From: Bacteroidota bacterium
GTDB lineage: Bacteria > Bacteroidota > Bacteroidia > AKYH767-A > 2013-40CM-41-45
Assembly (NCBI GenBank): GCA_043783155.1
Contig: JAYVZS010000065.1
Coordinates: forward strand, 5,480-69,479
Direction: 5' to 3'
DNA: 64,000 nucleotides
The notes beneath the pieces are model-generated. The model saw only the letters and a list, made by a program, of their open reading frames with translations, was not told the DNA's origin and did not search any database. Below, piece by piece: positions 1-24,278 of the stretch (its first letter is position 1; each line of letters begins with the position of its first letter). The position numbers and the translations under genes were made by a program.

Positions 1-3000
1 GGAATTGTGACAGTGTCACATTCAATACAAAATTCATAACAGCCGGTCGCAATGCAACTCAAATCTGGTAGCGGATGAATCGTAATTGTATTTGATAAAG
101 CACTGCATCCATATTGATTGATTGCTGTCACCGTATAGTCGCCGGTTCTTGCTGTGGTAATGCAATTTCCTATTTGTCCGGTGTTCCAGTTATATACAAT
201 CGGTGGACCAAGCGGTGATTGAACACAAAGCGTATGAAGCACTCCCTCGCATAATGAGCCGGCCGGTATAATGAATGGTGGTGCCGGTGTCGGATGTACG
301 ATCACATATACAGAGTCTATCGTGGTACAACCAAATGCATTCGTAACTGCAACGGTATAATATCCGGAATCGGATAACTGCATATTCGCTTTTATAAATG
401 GATTGGAATTTCCGGCAGCGAAAGGACCTGTCCATACATAACTCGCTCCTCCGACAGGAATCGTTTTCAACTTCATTACATCTCCTACACAAAGCACTGT
501 ATCACCCGCGATTAACGCAGGCGGTGATGGATTGACCGTTATTGTAACAGGAGTAATTGCAGGATATGCGCAGCCGGAAATTGTTTGCACAATCACGGCA
601 TACGTTCCGCTTACTTTCACAAACAAACTATCATTTGCATTTTGAGGAGGAGTGAGTGCTGGCCCCGGTGTCTTCGACCAGAGGTATGTTGCTCCTGGCG
701 GAGAAACGGTGAGTGTTACGGAATCACCATCACAGAATGTCAAAGGAAACCCAACGATCGTTGCGGCGGCCGGAACAGGATCAACAGTAATCGTATATGT
801 TGCCGTCGCAAAGCAGCCATTCAACCCCTGCACAGTTACCTGGTACGTAAACGTTCCTGGAAAACCTTGTCCGGCAGGGGCTGTAAGGTTTGGAGAATTT
901 CCACCGACAGGTGTTGATGGTAACAACACCCATGAAAAATTAATTCCCGCTGCTGATGTTTTAATGTCAAGATTTTCTCCCTGGCAATATTGTGTTTGTC
1001 CGCTGACGGTTGCATTAGGTGATTTGTTAACCGTTACCTGAACGGGTCCTGCTGTATATGGACAGCTACCAACAGGAGTTGATGTGACGGAATAAAATCC
1101 GCTTGTTTTCACGTACACAGGATTCGTTGGAAACGGCGGCGGTGTAATCACATTCCAAGTGAATGGCCCCGGACCTGATGCCTGCAGTTTAACCGAATCA
1201 CATGAGTTGGTAACGGTAATCGTTCCTGTTCCTGCGGGACTCACTATAATAGATTTTGTGTTCGTGTTTGTACATCCGTACTTATCCGTCACCGTTAAAA
1301 ACGGAAAGAATGGTCCTGAATTAATATACACAAGACTGCATGGTGAGAGAGTGGATGTTGCCGCGTTATTATTGTTGAACAAGCGGGATACTTCATCAAC
1401 TACATTGGTGGAAGTATCAATGAATATAGAAGGGGAGCCTACACAAACCGGTGTTGATATACTGAAGTTAGCGATTATAGGAGCAGGCACTATAATAACT
1501 TTCGTGAGTGTACATGTTGATAATGTAACAGGATCGTTTATGTATAAAGCAATCGTGTGTGTACCGGGTGTTAAAAGCTGTGCTGGTGGAAACGCAACAT
1601 TCGAAAGTACGGTGACTGTTGTAAGATCCTTCCATTGCCAGGTATAACTTGCTGCATTACCTAAGTACAGAGATGTGTTCGTTAAAATAGTTTGCATTTG
1701 ATTTGTACCGGTACACTGGAATGAATAATCAAACTTAGCATCAAATGGTATGGTGTCGAGATGAGAGTTAGTTGTTATTTTAGTACAAGGAAGTCCATTG
1801 TTATCAAAACCATGAGCTGTTCCCTGGACTTGCACGAGATACACCCCCGGATAAATATATGTATGAGTGACAGGGTTGGTATTTCCTGCCGTACCACCAT
1901 CTCCGAAATTCCAACCGGTTAATGTATCAGTTCCTGTCTTTGTAAAAGTTTGAGTCAGGCATGTTGCAGGTGTGTGAGTGAAATCAATTTTAGGAACAAC
2001 AAAGCAACCCAATGTGTCAGGTGGCGGACAATGACTTGTATCCACAAGAATAGCATTTGAAATTTGTGAACAGCTAAATCCATTTGTAACGGTCACAAAA
2101 AATAAAGTAGAAGCATTGATTGTTCGCGTAATCGAAGGAGTACCGGAGACAGGAGGTGGTGACCATGCATAGGAATTTCCACCGATGTTTACTGCCGACA
2201 GCGTAACTGTTGCAGGGAATGAACAAACCTGGAAAGGCCCGGTAATCACCGCAAGCGGTAACGGGTGTATGGTGATGCTGGTGTTCGCTGTTCCTGCACA
2301 TCCAAAAGTATTTATGACACTTAATGTAACCGGATATGTATTCGGCAGAGCATACGTAACGGTTGGTGACTGAACTGTAGTAGATGACGGAACACCTCCT
2401 GAAAAATTCCAGCTATAATTTGCAGCTACACCCGTGCTGAATGTTACCGTTGCTCCCTGGCAGGCAGATGAGGGTCCTGTAATACCCGGAGTTGGAAATG
2501 CATGAACCGTCACTATATATTTAACCGTCGTATCTAAACAGGTGGATTGAATGTGCAGTTTAATTGTATCGACTCCCGGTATGCTCCACAAAACATTTAT
2601 CGCAGTGTTGTTGCTGGATGTTATACCTCCTAATGCCGGTGCCGACAACGACCATGTATAACTTGCACCAACAAAAAGTGGTTGGCTGAACGTATGTGTG
2701 GTAGGACTGTTCACGCAGACACTCGAAGGCCCTGTAATGACAGGCACAACAGGAATATCATTCACATGAATACTTGTTTTCGCTGTATCAGAACAACCGT
2801 TTGTATTGGTAACATATAGTTGAACTGTAAAGTCACCCGCAGTTGTGTATATATACGGAGCGGTTTGAGTTCCCGCAATTCCGCCATCTCCAAAACTCCA
2901 GTTCCATAAAGGACCCGGACTCGATGTATTAAAAATAACCAGTGTATTCTTACAAGGATTCAATGGCGAATATGTGATGTTCGGCACCGGTGGCAGAGGA

Positions 3001-17353: not shown

Positions 17354-19225
17354 ATGAAATTTATTACCGTTATTCTCTTCTGCCTCGTTGTATTCAACTC
17401 ATGCAACCAGGATCCATCACACCATCAGCAATCAAACGAACAAACCATGCACGTAACCGATCCACATTCTTTCGCGAAACCAGATGAAGTTGTTGTAAAA
17501 CATCTTGCACTTGACATCACCGTCGACTTCGATAAAAAAATTGTTTCAGGTAAAGCCACCTGCGAAATTCAAAACAAACAGAAAGCCGGGCAGGTTATTT
17601 TTGATACGCGCGGTCTTACCATCGAAAAAGTAATGCTCGACGACAAGGAAACTACAACGTTTAAGTTGGGAGAGGAAGTAAAATTCATTGGACAATCCTT
17701 AACTGTAAACTGTAAACCGGAAACAAAAAGTATCTCCATCTATTATTCAACAAGTCGGGATGCTGCTGCTTTACAATGGCTGACGAAAGAACAGACAGCG
17801 GGAAAAAAGTTCCCGTTCTTTTTCACGCAATCGGAAGCAATACTGGCGCGCACATGGGTTCCGATCCAGGATAGTCCCGGAATTCGTTTCACTTATTCCG
17901 CGACCGTTCATGTTCCGAAAGGGTTGATGGCTGCGATGAGTGCGGGAAATCCGCAGGAAAAAAATGCTGCTGGAGTGTATCACTTCGACATGCCGCAACC
18001 GATTCCTGCTTACTTACTTGCGCTCGCTGTTGGTGATTTTGTTTTCAAATCAATCGGTAAACGAAGCGGGGTGTATGCTGAACCTGTTACCATTGATAAG
18101 TCAGTCTATGAATTCGCGGATCTTGAAAAAATGATTGACACTGCGGAAAAATTATACGGACCGTATGAATGGGGACGTTATGATCTCATTGTTCTTCCGC
18201 CAAGTTTTCCTTTTGGTGGAATGGAAAATCCACGACTTACTTTTTGCACACCGACTATTCTCGCCGGCGATCGCTCGCTCGTAAGTTTAGTTGCGCATGA
18301 ACTTGCTCACTCCTGGAGCGGTAACTTGGTGACGAATGCGACATGGAACGACTTCTGGATGAATGAGGGCTTCACTGTTTATTTTGAAAACCGGATCATG
18401 GAAGCACTCTATGGAAAATCGTTTGCCGACATGCAGGCATTGTTAGGATTGGAGGATCTGAAAGAAACAATGGGTGAACTGGGTGATACCAGCGAAGACA
18501 CGCACCTCAAATTAAATCTTGCTGGTCGGGATCCTGATGACGGAATGAACGATGTGGCATACGAGAAAGGACATTTTCTTTTGTTGCTGATTGAACAAAC
18601 TGTTGGAAGAGTTAGGTTCGATGCCTTCTTGAAAAATTATTTCCAGAAACATAAATTTCAAACCATCACCACCGAACAGTTTTTAGCGGAATACAAAAGT
18701 GAGTTGGTGAAAGACGACAGTGCAGAAGCAAAAAAGATTGACATTGAAAAATGGATTTACGAGCCGGGCATTCCTGAAAATTGTCCGAAGATAGTTTCAG
18801 AACGTTTCAATGCAGTTGATTCAATAGTGGAAGAGTGGAAGAAAGGGACTGCCGTGAAAAATCTGAACACGAAAAATTTTGAAAGCAATGAATGGCAGCG
18901 GTTCATCAGAAAATTACCGGAGAACATGACGTCTTCAAAAATGAAAGAGCTTGATGACGCGTATCATTTTACCATTTCCGGTAATTCAGAAATCCTCGGA
19001 GTGTGGCTGGAACACGTCATCAACAGCAAGTACGAGGCCGGTTATCCTGCATTGGAAATTTTTTTAGAAAACGTTGGTAGAAGAAAATTCTGCAAACCGC
19101 TCTACGCAGATCTTGCAAAAACACCTGACGGACTCATACTTGCAAAAAAAATCTACACCAAAGCCCGGATGAATTATCACAGTATTACTCAAGGTACCAT
19201 TGATGAGATATTGGGGTGGAAATAA
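17354..19225 (+). CDS. M1 family aminopeptidase (leukotriene A4 hydrolase-like), lipoprotein
   Basis: GGMEN exopeptidase motif, HELAH zinc motif, NEGFT, YEKG; lipobox-like FNSC. Confidence 0.95.
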   Translation: MKFITVILFCLVVFNSCNQDPSHHQQSNEQTMHVTDPHSFAKPDEVVVKHLALDITVDFDKKIVSGKATCEIQNKQKAGQVIFDTRGLTIEKVMLDDKETTTFKLGEEVKFIGQSLTVNCKPETKSISIYYSTSRDAAALQWLTKEQTAGKKFPFFFTQSEAILARTWVPIQDSPGIRFTYSATVHVPKGLMAAMSAGNPQEKNAAGVYHFDMPQPIPAYLLALAVGDFVFKSIGKRSGVYAEPVTIDKSVYEFADLEKMIDTAEKLYGPYEWGRYDLIVLPPSFPFGGMENPRLTFCTPTILAGDRSLVSLVAHELAHSWSGNLVTNATWNDFWMNEGFTVYFENRIMEALYGKSFADMQALLGLEDLKETMGELGDTSEDTHLKLNLAGRDPDDGMNDVAYEKGHFLLLLIEQTVGRVRFDAFLKNYFQKHKFQTITTEQFLAEYKSELVKDDSAEAKKIDIEKWIYEPGIPENCPKIVSERFNAVDSIVEEWKKGTAVKNLNTKNFESNEWQRFIRKLPENMTSSKMKELDDAYHFTISGNSEILGVWLEHVINSKYEAGYPALEIFLENVGRRKFCKPLYADLAKTPDGLILAKKIYTKARMNYHSITQGTIDEILGWK

Positions 19226-19317
19226 GTCAGTAAAATTTTTTATCTGATCCCTCGTCTTCTGGACTCTTTATCCAACCATTCAGTCATTTTACCTTTATAA
19301 TTTTTTAAATACTATTT

Positions 19318-19478
19318 CACTACTGTCCGACAAAAAAGATACTCACCTCTTGAAACATCTATCGATAGCAGGGATTAGCCCCTCTCCCTCAGAGAGGGGT
19401 TGGGATGAGGTCAATAAGGCAGAAACCAATGGTGACGGCATATTCAAAGCGACAAAAAATATTCCCCGGACAATAGTG
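19318..19478. mobile_element. 161-bp MITE-like element, copy 1
   Basis: Terminal inverted repeats CACTACTGTCCG / CGGACAATAGTG and internal hairpin CCCCTCTC-CCTCA-GAGAGGGG. Near-identical direct copy at 23016-23175. Confidence 0.85.
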
Positions 19479-19693
19479 ATAAATTTTAATGTCATACTAT
19501 TAAAACACGGGATCAGAAGAATAGTACGCTAACCGTTTTGAGAGCTCTTAAAAAAACTTTACAATAAAGATTCTCTCCATGAACCAAAGCGTCAATCGCT
19601 TTGAGAACTTTGTAGTTTCTTCTTTGCGTCCTTTGTGGTAAAGACCTTAATTGTACTTCACGAAAAACCTCAGCCTTCGAAGCAAACTAAGCA

Positions 19694-21733
19694 CTATTTC
19701 AAAACATCTATACCAAGCACCTTCGAAATTTTCATTTTCACTTCTTCGAGTTCTTTGTGGTGTTCCATCAGGTGAATATATTCTTCGCCGCTTGAATGCG
19801 CTTCTTTAATTTTTTTTTGATTCTCCGTCAGCATCCTGATTACCTGTTTGTTCTTGAGATGATAGACTGATTTCTCAACACTGTCTTTTAGGTTTTTTTC
19901 TTCCAGTGGAACAAAAATCTGGTGCATCGCTTCCCAGTTTTCACTGAGCAAATAAATCGGGCTTAATAATTCAACAGCAAGACTGCTGATCTCTGGGTTT
20001 TCATTCGTCAGAAAAATATCAGGATTAAATTCTCCGGAATCTTTTACAACACTTGCAATGTCAGTGAACATTCTCGCACAAACTGCATTTTCAATTCCGA
20101 TGTTGTCGCGCTCTATTTCATCCACGATAAACCGGCACACTTTTACCGAAGTGGTAATGGTTTCTTTTTTTCCTGCATGATCAACGATACCCGTCTCTTC
20201 ATAAAAATGCAATTCATGGTTGCCGAAGTTTAACAACAGCCGCATAATTTCACGCTCCTGGGATTCTGTTCCACCGTCGTGCAACGGCTGCTCAACCTTC
20301 AATACATCGGGAAGCAATTCATCAATGTCGTCGCGCGGCATTTCCTTTTTCAGCTGCGCCCGACGAATTTTATTCAACTCCGTCAGTAACACCTGTTCGT
20401 CAATGTCCATCAGTGAACTGCAATGCTTCACATACGTAGCACGGATAATCTGGTCAGGAATTTTCGCGATGGTTTCAACAACTTCACGGATCAATCCGGC
20501 TTTACGCACAGGATCATTCTTAACTTCATTCAGCAACAAACCTGTTTTGAAAACCACAAAATCCTTCGCGTTGTTCGCGATGAAATCGAGCACTTCACTG
20601 CTGCTGTGTTTCCGTGAATATGAATCGGGATCGTCGCCGTCGGGAAAGAGAACCACTTTTACATTCAATCCTTCTTCGAGTACCAAATCAATTCCACGCA
20701 ACGACGCTTTGATTCCCGCGGGATCACCGTCATATAAAATGGTAATGTTCTTCGTGTAGCGGCCGATCAACCGGATTTGTTCAACGGTAAGCGCCGTGCC
20801 GGAAGAGGCGGCAACATTTTCAATGCCCGACTGGTGAAGCGATATCACATCCGTATATCCTTCTACCAAATAACAATTGTCATGTTTAATGATGGCATTC
20901 TTCGCGAAGAAAATTCCGTACAACACATTGCTCTTGTGATATACTTCCGACTCGGGCGAATTGATGTACTTCGCTGCCTTGTCATCTTTCTTTAGAATCC
21001 GTCCGCCGAAAGCAATCACTCTTCCACTCAGGTTTTGAATCGGAAACATGACGCGGCCCCGGAAGCGATCAAGATACCTCACCCCAACCCTCTCTCCCGC
21101 TTTCATCGGGATAGACTCCGGAGAGAGGGTGCTGTCTCCGGAGGTAGATGAAGTTTGTTCTGTTTTCTCAATTGCCAATCCCGTTTTCACGAGAAACTCC
21201 TTTTGAAAACCATTTGCTAAAGCGGCCTTTACAAAAGCCTCCCATTCACCGAGAGAATAACCGAGTTGAAATTTCTGAATGATCTCGTTATTGAATCCAC
21301 GTTCTTTAAAATAAGACAGTCCAATCGCTTTGCCTTCTTCACTTTCTAAAAGTTGTTCTGAAAAATATTTTTGCGCAAAGGCATTCAACACGAGCATACT
21401 CTCTTTCTCATCGCGCAGCATCGTTTGTTCGGGCGATACCTTCTCCTCCTCTATCTCGATATTATATTTTTTCGCGATGTAACGCAAAGCTTCAGGGTAG
21501 GTAACGTGCTCGTGCTCCATGATAAAATTCACGGCCGTTCCTCCTTTGCCGCATCCGAAACATTTAAAAATATTTCGTGCCGGATTTACATTGAACGATG
21601 GCGTTTTCTCATTGTGAAAAGGACACAAGCCAAGCAAATTCACTCCGCGCTTTTTAAGCGACACAAAATCACCCACCACTTCTTCGATGCGTGCCGTTTC
21701 AAATATTTTATCAATTGTACTCTTGTTAATCAT
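19694..21733 (-). CDS. dnaG: DNA primase
   Basis: Zinc-binding CPFH...CFGC, DRFRGRVMFPI, KYINSPE, Toprim VEGYTDV and YDGD/DPD motifs. Confidence 0.98.
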   Translation of the reverse strand: MINKSTIDKIFETARIEEVVGDFVSLKKRGVNLLGLCPFHNEKTPSFNVNPARNIFKCFGCGKGGTAVNFIMEHEHVTYPEALRYIAKKYNIEIEEEKVSPEQTMLRDEKESMLVLNAFAQKYFSEQLLESEEGKAIGLSYFKERGFNNEIIQKFQLGYSLGEWEAFVKAALANGFQKEFLVKTGLAIEKTEQTSSTSGDSTLSPESIPMKAGERVGVRYLDRFRGRVMFPIQNLSGRVIAFGGRILKKDDKAAKYINSPESEVYHKSNVLYGIFFAKNAIIKHDNCYLVEGYTDVISLHQSGIENVAASSGTALTVEQIRLIGRYTKNITILYDGDPAGIKASLRGIDLVLEEGLNVKVVLFPDGDDPDSYSRKHSSSEVLDFIANNAKDFVVFKTGLLLNEVKNDPVRKAGLIREVVETIAKIPDQIIRATYVKHCSSLMDIDEQVLLTELNKIRRAQLKKEMPRDDIDELLPDVLKVEQPLHDGGTESQEREIMRLLLNFGNHELHFYEETGIVDHAGKKETITTSVKVCRFIVDEIERDNIGIENAVCARMFTDIASVVKDSGEFNPDIFLTNENPEISSLAVELLSPIYLLSENWEAMHQIFVPLEEKNLKDSVEKSVYHLKNKQVIRMLTENQKKIKEAHSSGEEYIHLMEHHKELEEVKMKISKVLGIDVLK
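21077..21130. repeat. Palindromic element inserted in frame within dnaG
   Basis: CCTCACCCCAACCCTCTCTCC...GGAGAGAGGGT (11-bp perfect stem 21087-21097/21120-21130) with an inner TCCCG...CGGGA pair. It matches the reverse complement of the MITE hairpin (GAGAGGGTTGGGGTGAGG). Confidence 0.75.
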
Positions 21734-22734
21734 TGCAATGCTAATTTTTTATACCGCGTGTCCCTGGGTTTTTTCGGAACTGCATTCGCGATAAACTGGG
21801 CAATGGTATTGTAATATTCTTCCCCGCCTGTTTGTTCAATGTTATCATGTCCGGCTTTCTTCACCAAAATTAAATTTTTTTCTTTTGCTCCCGACGAGTC
21901 ATACACAGCATAGGTTTCGATTGGCTGGATAATTTCATCATTGTCACCGCAAATAAACAGACTCGGAATTTTTACATACTTGATCACCTCCGACAGGTTC
22001 AGTTCTGTCAGTTCATATTGAAGTCGTTTTTCCAACGCCCTTTCTAGCACAGGATGAAAAATAAAACTCATCTTGCCCCATTTTCTTTTTGAATACTGGC
22101 TGACATAGGCCGAGAAATCGCTGAAGGGACTTTGTGAAATCAATGCAGAAAATCGTTCGTCGATACTTGCTGCCTGTATCACAATAGCCGCTCCCATTCC
22201 CGATCCGAAAACAGCAATGTGGTTCGTACTCTTTTTTTTCAGTAAGCTGTCGACAATGTTTTTGAAATCAGATACTGCGGCCATGCCCGGAGAAAACTCA
22301 GTGCCGTCACTGTTCCCATGTGCGCGCATGTCAATCGCGCATATATTCAAACCCCTGTCGTTCATCTGCTTCATCATGTTCAGGTAATTAATTTTACTTT
22401 GACTGAGATCATGAATAATGAGCAATGTATTCGCTTCTTCGTCACCGTTCGCAATGTACCAGCCACGAAGAATAAGTCCGTCTGCTGTCTGTACATCAAA
22501 CTTTTCGTACTTCATTCCGAGTGATGATGGATTGAAAAGAACGGGTAGTGCTTTTCCCAGAGAATCGTGAGAAGCTGTCCTGGTGGCCCGCTCAGACTCA
22601 TACTTCACATACAACGAATCGACCCTGACAGGATAAATCAGATCAGGCGCAACGAAGAATGTGCTTGCAAAAATAAATGCAGCGATGAGAAGAAGCAGGG
22701 ATGCAACAGAATAAAAAAATTTGTTCAACGTCAT
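21730..22734 (-). CDS. Alpha/beta hydrolase with an N-terminal membrane anchor
   Basis: TADGLILRGWY, nucleophile elbow GSGMG, ICGDND, GH motif; its stop overlaps the dnaG start by 4 bp. Confidence 0.88.
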   Translation of the reverse strand: MTLNKFFYSVASLLLLIAAFIFASTFFVAPDLIYPVRVDSLYVKYESERATRTASHDSLGKALPVLFNPSSLGMKYEKFDVQTADGLILRGWYIANGDEEANTLLIIHDLSQSKINYLNMMKQMNDRGLNICAIDMRAHGNSDGTEFSPGMAAVSDFKNIVDSLLKKKSTNHIAVFGSGMGAAIVIQAASIDERFSALISQSPFSDFSAYVSQYSKRKWGKMSFIFHPVLERALEKRLQYELTELNLSEVIKYVKIPSLFICGDNDEIIQPIETYAVYDSSGAKEKNLILVKKAGHDNIEQTGGEEYYNTIAQFIANAVPKKPRDTRYKKLALQ

Positions 22735-22751
22735 GATTTGGCGAATAATCG

Positions 22752-22881
22752 GTAGTGTCTCAGTTTGATGTTTGTATGATTACGTTATGCCTGTAGCGAA
22801 TTACGAATTAATACGAATGTACGAATACGCGAATTGATATTCTCAGCGTGAAATATTTCGCTACTTAAACTGAGTCACTAC
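22752..22881. repeat. GTAGTG...CACTAC-bounded REP/MITE-like element C
   Basis: 17-bp terminal inverted repeats with 2 mismatches (GTAGTGTCTCAGTTTGA / TTAAACTGAGTCACTAC); interior has short (A)CGAAT repeats. Confidence 0.75.
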
Positions 22882-23015
22882 AGAATAATCCCCCGGAGAA
22901 TAAAAGTAGTATTTTTTTTTAAGATGGTGGGTATTTGCACCAGGCACGGGCTTAAACCGCTTTTGTTAGAAATAAATTATCAAAAAACAATTGATCAAAA
23001 AATTTTAAATTTTAT

Positions 23016-23175
23016 AACTACTGTCCGACAAAAAAGATACTCACCTCTTGAAACATCTATCGATAGCAGGGATTAGCCCCTCTCCCTCGGAGAGGGTTGG
23101 GGTGAGGTCAATAAGGCAGAAACCAATGGTGACGGCATATTCAAAGCGACAAAAAATATTCCCCGGACAATAGTG
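23016..23175. mobile_element. 160-bp MITE-like element, copy 2
   Basis: Direct repeat of 19318-19478 differing at about 4 positions; ends AACTACTGTCCG / CGGACAATAGTG; perfect CCCTCTCC-CTC-GGAGAGGG hairpin. Confidence 0.85.
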
Positions 23176-23294
23176 AAATTTTATAATTTCAAATTCCTTG
23201 CTTTGAAGAAAATGATAATTATTGATTCGATTTTATTTGATCAATTGTTATTTGATAATTGGTCATTCGTTATGACCGCTGGTCATTAAAACTT

Positions 23295-24278
23295 TCAATT
23301 CTCCCTCTCAATGGTAAACTTCACCAGGTCTTTTAATTTTTCCTTATAAATCCCTTCATCAAAATCATTTAAAATGGTAAACGCTTTTTGTTCGTACTCT
23401 TTCATTCTGCTCACGGCATATTCAATGCCTCCGTTTTGTTTTACGAAAGCGATGACTTCTTTCACTTTTGCATCTTCTGTGTTGTGATTTTTTATGATGT
23501 TGACGACGTGACGCTTCACGCTTCGATCCGCTTTGCTCAACGTATAAATCAGCGGCAACGTCATTTTACTTTCCTTGATGTCGATGCCGGTTGGTTTCCC
23601 GATGATGCCATCGGGACCATAATCGAACAGGTCGTCTTTGATCTGGAAAGCGATGCCGATGCATTCTCCGAAAGCATGCATGCGTTGTACAACCTCTTCG
23701 TTGGCTCCCGCTGAAGCGGCTCCGCAGGCGCAACATGAAGCAATAAGAGAAGCCGTTTTCTGTCGGATGATTTCAAAATAAATATCTTCCTTGATGTCGA
23801 GGCGGCGCGCCTTTTCAATCTGCAGCAATTCTCCTTCGCTCATCACTTTCACCGCTTCGCTTACAATTTTCAGCAGGTTGTGGTCATTGTTTTCAACTGA
23901 TAACAAGAGCCCTTTGCTCAACAAATAATCTCCGACCAGCACAGCAATTTTATTTTTCCACAGCGCGTTCAATGAAAAGAAACCCCGGCGTTCATTTGAA
24001 TCATCTACTACATCATCGTGAACAAGTGTGGCTGTATGGAGCAATTCAATCAATGCGGCAGCGCGGTAGCTGGCTTCGGAAATTCCTCCGCACATGCCTG
24101 AAGAAAGAAACACGAACATCGGCCGCATCTGTTTTCCCTTTCGTTTCACGATGTAATGCGTGATACGGTCAAGCAGCGGCACGGAACTTTTCATGGAAGC
24201 CCTGAACTTTTTTTCAAAGTCATCCATCACCAAAGCAATGGGTGCTTTGATTTCGTCCAGTGTAAGTATTTTACTCAT
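23295..24278 (-). CDS. ispB: Polyprenyl (octaprenyl-like) diphosphate synthase
   Basis: GKQMRP, FARM LVHDDVVD...RRG, KTASL, SARM FQIKDDLFD, GKP. Confidence 0.9.
   Translation of the reverse strand: MSKILTLDEIKAPIALVMDDFEKKFRASMKSSVPLLDRITHYIVKRKGKQMRPMFVFLSSGMCGGISEASYRAAALIELLHTATLVHDDVVDDSNERRGFFSLNALWKNKIAVLVGDYLLSKGLLLSVENNDHNLLKIVSEAVKVMSEGELLQIEKARRLDIKEDIYFEIIRQKTASLIASCCACGAASAGANEEVVQRMHAFGECIGIAFQIKDDLFDYGPDGIIGKPTGIDIKESKMTLPLIYTLSKADRSVKRHVVNIIKNHNTEDAKVKEVIAFVKQNGGIEYAVSRMKEYEQKAFTILNDFDEGIYKEKLKDLVKFTIEREN

Follow-up and report, generated by a model that had tools for sequence, protein, structure and literature searches.

An in-frame BoxC/PIT/TMECO repeat very probably lengthens a surface loop of DNA primase in a Bacteroidota bacterium

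We analyzed a 64,000-nucleotide stretch of the genome of a Bacteroidota bacterium (GenBank assembly GCA_043783155.1, contig JAYVZS010000065.1, positions 5,480 to 69,479 of the forward strand; called the window here), in which an initial annotation, made from the sequence alone, had described a palindromic repeat inserted in frame inside the DNA primase gene, dnaG. The open reading frame (ORF) encodes a complete DnaG, with zinc ribbon, DNAG_N, Toprim, and DnaB_bind/DnaB-binding domains found with Pfam, and primases in the PDB match it at E values of 1e-66 to 1e-35. It is the single dnaG in this 3.3-Mb, 153-contig genome. The DNAG_N match is split into two stretches, the second of which begins at residue 218, right behind the insert. 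Together with a hydrolase gene, dnaG is bracketed by two copies, in direct orientation, of a 161-bp MITE, a miniature inverted-repeat transposable element (Table 1). The insert contains an element whose coding strand consists of CCCTCTCTCC, 22 nt, GGAGAGAGGG, TT, and GGGGTGAGG; that is, a C-rich arm, the G-rich arm that pairs with it, and another G-rich block. We found that this element is very probably a copy of the BoxC/PIT/TMECO repeat that was inserted in frame in dnaG of the window lineage, where it lengthens a loop at the surface of the primase, an essential enzyme encoded by a single-copy gene.

Table 1. Features of the dnaG region, in window coordinates
Feature	Coordinates	Strand	Basis
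MITE copy 1, 161 bp, triplex-motif core 19380-19410	19318..19478	plus	
dnaG, DNA primase, 679 aa	19694..21733	minus	ORF and Pfam domains
Lengthened loop EQTSSTSGDSTLSPESIPMKAGERVGVRY (residues 192-220), flanked by strands 187-190 and 219-222	21074..21160	minus	Alignment with 19 relatives, AlphaFold2 model, PDB entry 5guj
BoxC/TMECO-derived element, 53 nt	21077..21129	minus	Regular-expression family search and shared exact 18-mer
Block 3, G-rich tail GGGGTGAGG, encodes G-V-R and stops two codons ahead of DRF	21077..21085	minus	Same junction in congener G003 and in a Flavobacteriales metagenome-assembled genome
Expanded first loop, 22 nt, carries competing TCCCG/CGGGA pairing	21098..21119	minus	Unique in genome
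Second, overlapping palindrome CTCCGGAGAGAG / CTGTCTCCGGAG, 11/12 complementary	21116..21143		Repeat search; in DNA minimum-energy fold
MITE copy 2, triplex-motif core 23078-23107, carries exact 18-mer	23016..23175	plus	

The coding strand around the insert reads ACC TCC GGA GAC AGC ACC CTC TCT CCG GAG TCT ATC CCG ATG AAA GCG GGA GAG AGG GTT GGG GTG AGG TAT CTT GAT CGC, and the insert-spanning stretch of the DnaG peptide is ...LSPESIPMKAGERVGVR... The loop peptide lies at exactly the coordinates given in the initial annotation, and the 11-bp-stem hairpin described there was also found, with ACCCTCTCTCC at 21087-21097 complementary to GGAGAGAGGGT at 21120-21130; this is the stem of the RNA centroid fold. 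The TCCCG...CGGGA pair, which had been described as nested, is present at 21095-21099 and 21107-21111 but has three bases in common with the outer stem, which makes the two pairings competitors instead of a nested set. The overlapping palindrome listed in Table 1 likewise competes with the 11-bp stem. Neither the 21-nt filling of the first loop nor this upstream palindrome has a second copy in the genome at up to three mismatches, so they do not represent a second repeat family. We also found the identical 679-residue protein on nine contigs and identical DNA through the element at five loci from five assemblies. An assembly artefact was considered and is ruled out by the identical DNA in these five independent assemblies.

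The element is tied to a repeat family by an 18-mer, CCTCACCCCAACCCTCTC. The window has exactly two occurrences of it, at 21077-21094 (plus strand) and 23090-23107 (minus strand), compared to 0 expected from shuffled sequences. There is no further occurrence in the rest of the genome, so the 18-mer is confined to the dnaG element and to MITE copy 2, at a distance of 2 kb. Of the two flanking MITEs, whose hairpin the initial annotation had matched to the insert, only copy 2 has the exact 18-mer; the core of copy 1 differs from it by an extra G and a G-to-A change. A pattern search with CCCTCTCC-N3-6-GGAGAGGG-N1-3-GGGGTGAGG found 47 copies in the genome, about 22 of them inside the MITE and about 25 solo with unrelated flanks, and the reversed pattern, used as a control, gave 0 matches in all 31 genomes of our set (the window's own genome and 30 relatives, labelled with G below). 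Canonical copies have the form CCCTCTCC-N4-GGAGAGGG-N2-3-GGGGTGAGG. The exact motif is patchy among these genomes, being present in 10 of the 31, with 28 copies in G011, 18 in the window's own genome, 13 in G014, and 0 in the congeners G001 and G003. No Rfam family matched positions 19000-23400 at E values up to 1.

This family corresponds to a repeat known from other bacteria. For BoxC/PIT/TMECO elements, Holder et al. 2015 (NAR 43:10126, PMC4666352) cite work by Bachellier in the 1990s and by Hoyne and Maher in 2000, and give the TMECO consensus as CCCTCNCCC-N3-6-GGGNGAGGG-N3-GGGNGAGGG, with TTA-type and CCG-type second loops. An Escherichia coli BoxC copy, GCCCTCACCCCAACCCTCTCCCACAGGGAGAGGGTTGGGGTGAGGGCA (CCCTCACCCCAACCCTCTCCC ACA GGGAGAGGG TTGGGGTGAGGG), contains the window 18-mer exactly. 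Canonical copies in the window's genome, for example those at C112 and C121 (CCCTCTCCC TT GGGAGAGGG CCG GGGTGAGG), fit the TMECO consensus with blocks of 8 to 9 nt, and the dnaG copy departs from it, as each of its arms is lengthened by one CT/AG unit and its first loop is 22 nt long instead of the published 3 to 6 nt. The two sets of elements have the three-block architecture and a near-identical sequence in common, the TT(N) and CCG second loops found here correspond to types A and B, and both are multicopy repeats that are patchy among close relatives (strain variable in E. coli), with no mobility gene known. They differ in where they are found. The strict-consensus census counted 3610 copies in 262 proteobacterial genomes, and the 23 copies in E. 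coli K-12 are all intergenic (Holder et al. 2015, PMC4666352), whereas the host here belongs to the Bacteroidota, at least 7 of the approximately 25 solo copies are read through inside genes, and approximately 22 further copies lie inside a MITE. Holder et al. 2015 (PMC4666352) did not find the published repeats connected to mobile elements. Judged by its sequence, the dnaG copy is very probably a rearranged member of the BoxC/TMECO family.

We compared the dnaG site among relatives in an alignment of 20 DnaG proteins that sampled the genus, its family, and its order, the comparison with close orthologs that the initial annotation had proposed. In G003, whose DnaG is 84% identical to the window protein outside the loop, the site reads CCA TCT CCC CCT CCT TTG GAG AGG GTC GGG GAG AGG CTA CTT GAT and contains a copy, TCCCCCTCC-TTTG-GAGAGGG-TC-GGGGAGAGG, of canonical size, with a 4-nt loop and in the codon phase of the window copy (ERVGERLL-DRF in G003 and ERVGVRYL-DRF in the window). 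The G003 copy is decaying, with one arm mismatched and a T-to-A change in the tail. In contrast, the G001 site (83% DnaG identity) reads GAT GAA AAA AAC GAA CGG CTG ATT GAT and has no motif, with GAA CGG at the place of the last two codons of block 3 (GAG/GTG AGG). G002 has no motif either. The DnaG tree has the form (G001,(G000,(G003,G002))), with G002 on a long branch, and the simplest history to be read from these sequences is that the motif was gained after the G001 split, followed by decay in G003 and remodelling of the window copy. Since the copies in G003 and in a Flavobacteriales genome described below have 4-nt loops, the window copy would be a derived, rearranged member. In G014, we observed a canonical copy (L025:416-444) a few bases beyond one end of the dnaG match (450-1832, minus strand).

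The same DnaG position has been filled more than once. A junction query made of block 2, block 3, two codons, and GAY CGN TTY was run against 185,579 species, each represented by one genome, and matched 13 loci, including the G003 contig and an uncultured Flavobacteriales metagenome-assembled genome (MAG), Kiruna3_bin-3741. The dnaG of this MAG reads GCA CCC TCT CCT TCA GAG AGG GCT GGG GTG AGG TAT TTT GAT CGT, which corresponds to SAPSPSERAGVRYF-DRF and is a canonical copy with a 4-nt loop in a position, orientation, and frame identical to those in the window. It is the sole exact motif of that genome. Relatives of the MAG (73 to 77% identity) have a motif-free, 12-residue loop, TIQNEEDKEKYF, so its gain was independent of that in the window lineage. 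A recent transfer of a dnaG segment between the orders was also considered and is ruled out by the low identity, 51%, that the flanking protein has to the window DnaG. Despite this distance, six codons (GAG AGG ... GGG GTG AGG TAT) agree with the window at all synonymous positions, which is not explained by protein-level selection alone. When L056:4380-4520 from this MAG was compared to window positions 21070-21135, bases outside the core were also common to both, GCA on the 5' side and TAT on the 3' side; the TAT (Tyr) codon was already present in the Flavobacteriales lineage, while the relatives in the window's genus have Leu there. In the same family as the window's genome, G011, from a sister clade, has a motif-like CTCTCTCCGCC-AATT-GGCGGAAGAG-GC-GGAGAGGGG that ends two codons ahead of DRF and may be a third independent gain at this position. 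The junction scan also matched five contigs from MAGs labelled Streptomycetaceae (L052, L053, L059, L062, and L064) and L054, L055, L057, L060, L061, and L063, from MAGs labelled Phycisphaeraceae, Isosphaeraceae, Opitutus, Desulfuromonadales, and Binataceae and from Proluteimonas, which extends the range of the motif well past the Proteobacteria.

The insert lies in a part of DnaG that varies in length. The initial annotation took a short loop to be normal for DnaG here. In a table of 113 Bacteroidales-type primases from a protein collection, the KTGL-to-DRF segment is hypervariable, at 8 to 44 residues with a mode of 10, and PDB primases have 1 to 2 residues at the insert; the 35 residues of the window protein being the second-longest value. 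In the Bacillus subtilis structure 5guj, the chain goes from residue 83 to 85 where the window DnaG goes from 191 to 217. The net gain is approximately 25 residues compared to short-loop homologues such as 5guj, as first estimated (about 20 to 25), but 17 residues compared to G001, the nearest repeat-free congener. Long loops without a palindrome also exist in distant relatives (for example, 27 residues in G018), which is in part the outcome that had been named in advance as evidence against an insertion; they do not refute it, because the repeat is present in the DNA of the window and absent from that of a congener. In an AlphaFold2 model built from the 20-sequence alignment (mean pLDDT, 79), residues 193-216 have pLDDT values below 50 and are predicted to form a disordered, surface-exposed excursion at the tip of a beta-hairpin, directly upstream of the conserved DRFRGRVMFPI motif in the N-terminal subdomain of the catalytic core. 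We infer that the loop is functionally neutral and tolerated. The longest loop at this position (44 residues) belongs to P0018, the DnaG of a Prevotellaceae MAG, and contains two hairpin-like peptides, SPSKGELGD and SPPEGDLGS, whose sequences suggest two further insertions of a related motif.

Other genes of this genome contain the repeat as well. When long ORFs were named with NCBIfam (and a 1151-residue pyruvate carboxylase ORF by its hallmarks), at least 7 of the approximately 25 solo copies were internal to conserved coding sequences, and in-frame copies were found, besides that in DnaG, in HemW (repeat peptide PSPLERAGVRS), at two sites in LeuRS (ALSKGEGLGEAS at site 1 and SLSSGEGRGEVF at site 2), in DNA polymerase I (PolA; SLSFGEGRGEAP and a degenerate PSPSPKGERGAA), in the putative pyruvate carboxylase (Pyc; PSPSESVGVRS), and, as an antisense copy, in LpxH (LTPALSIGEGE). 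In addition, the motif lies in an N-terminal extension or leader of MiaB and makes the C-terminal tail of a DUF559 protein. In the miaB gene on contig C141 of the same genome, we observed that the NCBIfam MiaB match falls into two stretches separated by a gap of about 40 residues (221-262). The canonical unit is free of stop codons in five of six frames, being closed only in the sense frame that reads GGGG TGA GG. All seven canonical coding copies have a 30-nt core, mostly with 5' ACT and 3' TC to give about 36 nt or 12 codons, while the intergenic and MITE copies have cores of mostly 31 to 32 nt and a 5' AGC; this is how a discrete inserted unit filtered for frame would be expected to look.

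For several of these gene copies, empty sites in relatives confirm that insertion took place in genes besides dnaG. LeuRS site 2 is empty in G001 (AGT ACT / TTC TTT, with the slash at the site) and has a 36-nt addition in the window's genome, while at LeuRS site 1 the G001 gene is shorter by six codons and the left arm of the repeat aligns with a TTTTCC that already exists in G001. In the PolA linker, both copies are missing in G001 and are shared, in decayed form, by G003. The LeuRS of G006 contains copies at both of the sites occupied in the window's genome, one in another frame and one in the opposite orientation, and these are therefore certainly independent events. We also observed an antisense copy at a third site, near query residue 293, in leuS of G021 (L037:2525-2552), and motif-like peptides at PolA site 1 are found in G010 and G011.

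Taken as a mechanism, these data suggest that a BoxC/PIT/TMECO intrastrand-triplex hairpin (C-rich arm, short loop, G-rich arm, 2- to 3-nt loop, and second G-rich block) would have been inserted into dnaG of an ancestor that the window lineage shares with G003, after the G001 split, landing in the codons of the beta-hairpin tip just upstream of DRFRGRVMFPI. Since the unit has no stop codon in five frames and the length of the coding copies is divisible by three, the primase frame would have stayed open, and the element would be transcribed and translated as ...LSP...GERVGVR..., with its last codon, AGG, supplying the basic residue found in relatives at the third position ahead of the DRF Asp. 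The window lineage would later have remodelled the hairpin by adding one CT/AG unit to each arm and growing the loop to 22 nt, and the outcome would be the disordered, surface-exposed stretch. Local instability, deletions, and replication stalling, which the literature links to these elements (PMC4666352), fit the remodelling and decay seen here.

Several observations weigh against this interpretation. According to the alignment, the loop was long and variable in the genus before any insertion, it has diverged too far for the exact insertion boundaries to be fixed, and ancestral Glu-Arg codons, still seen as GAA CGG in G001, could make up part of block 3 (GAG AGG). The dnaG copy lies outside the strict TMECO pattern in both its first loop and its 10-nt arms. 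Its folding energy is no better than that of shuffled sequences (z = -1.5 and -1.1; DNA and RNA z-scores from -1.1 to -1.8), so it is the identity in sequence to the repeat family that carries the case. Translation of the loop is deduced solely from the frame being open in a gene that is essential and single copy. A comparison of filled and empty dnaG, leuS, and polA sites showed neither a target-site duplication nor a target motif in common, and candidate mobility genes were not associated with the repeat: none of six Y1/RAYT transposase hits in the genome is linked to a solo copy (the copy nearest to a Y1 gene is a MITE copy at 532 bp, and the other Y1 contigs have none), and none of seven small GIY-YIG nuclease hits lies beside a copy.

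We weighed this interpretation against three others. If the insert were instead what is left of the flanking MITE after its transposition into dnaG and a later trimming to the central hairpin, the genome-wide restriction of the 18-mer to dnaG and the MITE copy 2 kb away would be explained, and the MITE itself appears recent and mobile, as it has terminal inverted repeats (TIRs; CACTACTGTCCG / CGGACAATAGTG), the triplex motif at its center, and 21 aligned, nearly identical copies, each with a 9-bp, AT-rich target-site duplication. However, there is no MITE arm, CACTACTGTCCG TIR, or 9-bp duplication around the dnaG element, which makes it a solo copy, and the approximately 25 solo copies, some of them in other genes, also lack MITE arms. 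Solo-type dnaG copies are found both in G003, which has no exact motif genome-wide, and in the Flavobacteriales MAG, and it is much less parsimonious to suppose that 161 bp, a length not divisible by three, were inserted and then trimmed precisely in frame. A MITE origin is thus extremely improbable; the dnaG element is a solo BoxC/TMECO copy, and the MITE is another carrier of the motif. The observation reported in the initial annotation, a selfish-type palindromic repeat that lengthens in frame a surface loop of an essential enzyme, is confirmed, and its interpretation is supported, with a BoxC/TMECO-type triplex motif in place of a MITE fragment. The 18-mer variant GAGAGGG-TT, in place of the GAGAGGGG-TT usual in the MITE, is confined to the dnaG element and to MITE copy 2, and could reflect local gene conversion or a chance loss of one base in a G run. 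No matching transposase was identified for the 161-bp MITE.

The insert could also have arisen with no insertion at all, as a hypervariable, low-complexity linker in which a palindrome was born in place by replication slippage or template switching and resembles the repeat by chance. The range of loop lengths across the Bacteroidales, with several long palindrome-free versions, would allow this, the matched CT/AG expansion, the genome-unique loop sequence, and the overlapping CTCCGGAG palindrome look locally generated, and at LeuRS site 1 only the G-rich half looks inserted. Templating by a hairpin cannot, however, make the non-palindromic tail, GGGGTGAGG, that is part of the 18-nt exact identity to the family consensus, and it does not account for the six codons that are identical at synonymous positions to those of the Flavobacteriales copy or for the constant 30-nt core and ACT/TC flanks of the coding copies, which are those of a discrete unit. 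We therefore regard an origin in place as quite improbable. Retention of the hairpin for a function in dnaG, whether as a structure that pauses replication, transcription, or translation and tunes primase levels, or through a role of the peptide, would fit the independent gain of the same codon position, orientation, and frame in two orders, the sole exact copy of the Flavobacteriales MAG being in dnaG, and the compensating expansion of both arms that kept their pairing. Stable triplex formation by TMECO oligonucleotides and a block of DNA polymerase by PIT elements have been observed in vitro (PMC4666352). This explanation is nonetheless very improbable, as many unrelated genes and spacers hold the element, so that nothing about it is specific to dnaG, close relatives manage without the dnaG copy, the G003 copy is in decay, and the added peptide is predicted to be disordered. 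According to the same source, no in vivo effect or in vivo triplex was found, and earlier work cited there is described as having detected no promoter or terminator activity (PMC4666352).

The insertion of a BoxC/PIT/TMECO copy raises the question of how such copies are distributed. We consider it possible, though on balance unlikely, that the motif in Bacteroidota is a discrete mobile unit of approximately 33 to 36 nt (11 to 12 codons) that enters coding sequences with a site preference. The same DnaG position, orientation, and frame are filled in at least two independently gaining lineages, the window genus and the Flavobacteriales MAG, and the same LeuRS and PolA loops have also been filled more than once. 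These recurrent sites also fit a survival filter, in which few loops tolerate an addition of 10 to 12 residues and, in DnaG, a conserved Lys/Arg at position -3 has its place taken by the terminal AGG. The differing frames and orientations in LeuRS favor such a filter, while the identical DnaG junctions leave targeting possible.

In its behavior, the element resembles the Rickettsia palindromic elements (RPEs; Ogata et al. 2000/2002, as summarized in PMC10969869) and the Wolbachia palindromic elements, which that summary describes as palindromic repeats in frame in housekeeping genes. In both cases, unrelated housekeeping genes contain the repeat in frame, it is translated, and it lies in surface loops where the fold tolerates it, which for the element described here is read from sequence and predicted structure. 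RPEs, as summarized there, are approximately 100 to 150 bp, restricted to the Rickettsiales, and encode a conserved peptide of 30 to 50 residues, whereas the element described here is approximately 30 to 36 nt (10 to 12 codons, with 53 nt for the dnaG copy), crosses phyla, has five readable frames, and has a non-palindromic, triplex-forming tail. There is no sequence kinship between the two; the element works like an RPE without being a member of that family. REP, BIME, and REPIN repeats with RAYT (TnpA-REP, Y1; PMC3733652) are also dispersed, GC-rich hairpins of 20 to 40 nt with a high copy number, and Y1 genes are present in this genome, but the element lacks a GTAG/CGTC tag (its flanks are AGC or ACT on the 5' side and TC on the 3' side) and Y1_Tnp linkage, and REPs by definition lie outside genes.

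Few short repeats of bacteria are as conserved as BoxC/PIT/TMECO, whose function and spread are unexplained, the latter since the 1990s. We found no report of BoxC/TMECO inside coding sequence in the literature searched, and the published description of an intergenic, proteobacterial element does not cover its behavior inside genes of Bacteroidota. Unlike spacers, genes offer filled and empty sites that can be aligned, and they are suited to finding what inserts where; recurrent insertion at the same site is the aspect most worth following, and if the preference is mechanistic, the comparison of filled and empty sites in essential genes would be a first handle on the insertion mechanism. Through this repeat, conserved enzymes routinely gain loop insertions, and annotators and modellers should recognize PSPxERxGVR, LSxGEGxGE, and SPxPSPKGEG as repeat-derived peptides. 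The presence of the repeat in frame in single-copy, conserved genes of Bacteroidota extends the concept of selfish DNA inside proteins from Rickettsia to a far smaller, cross-phylum element.

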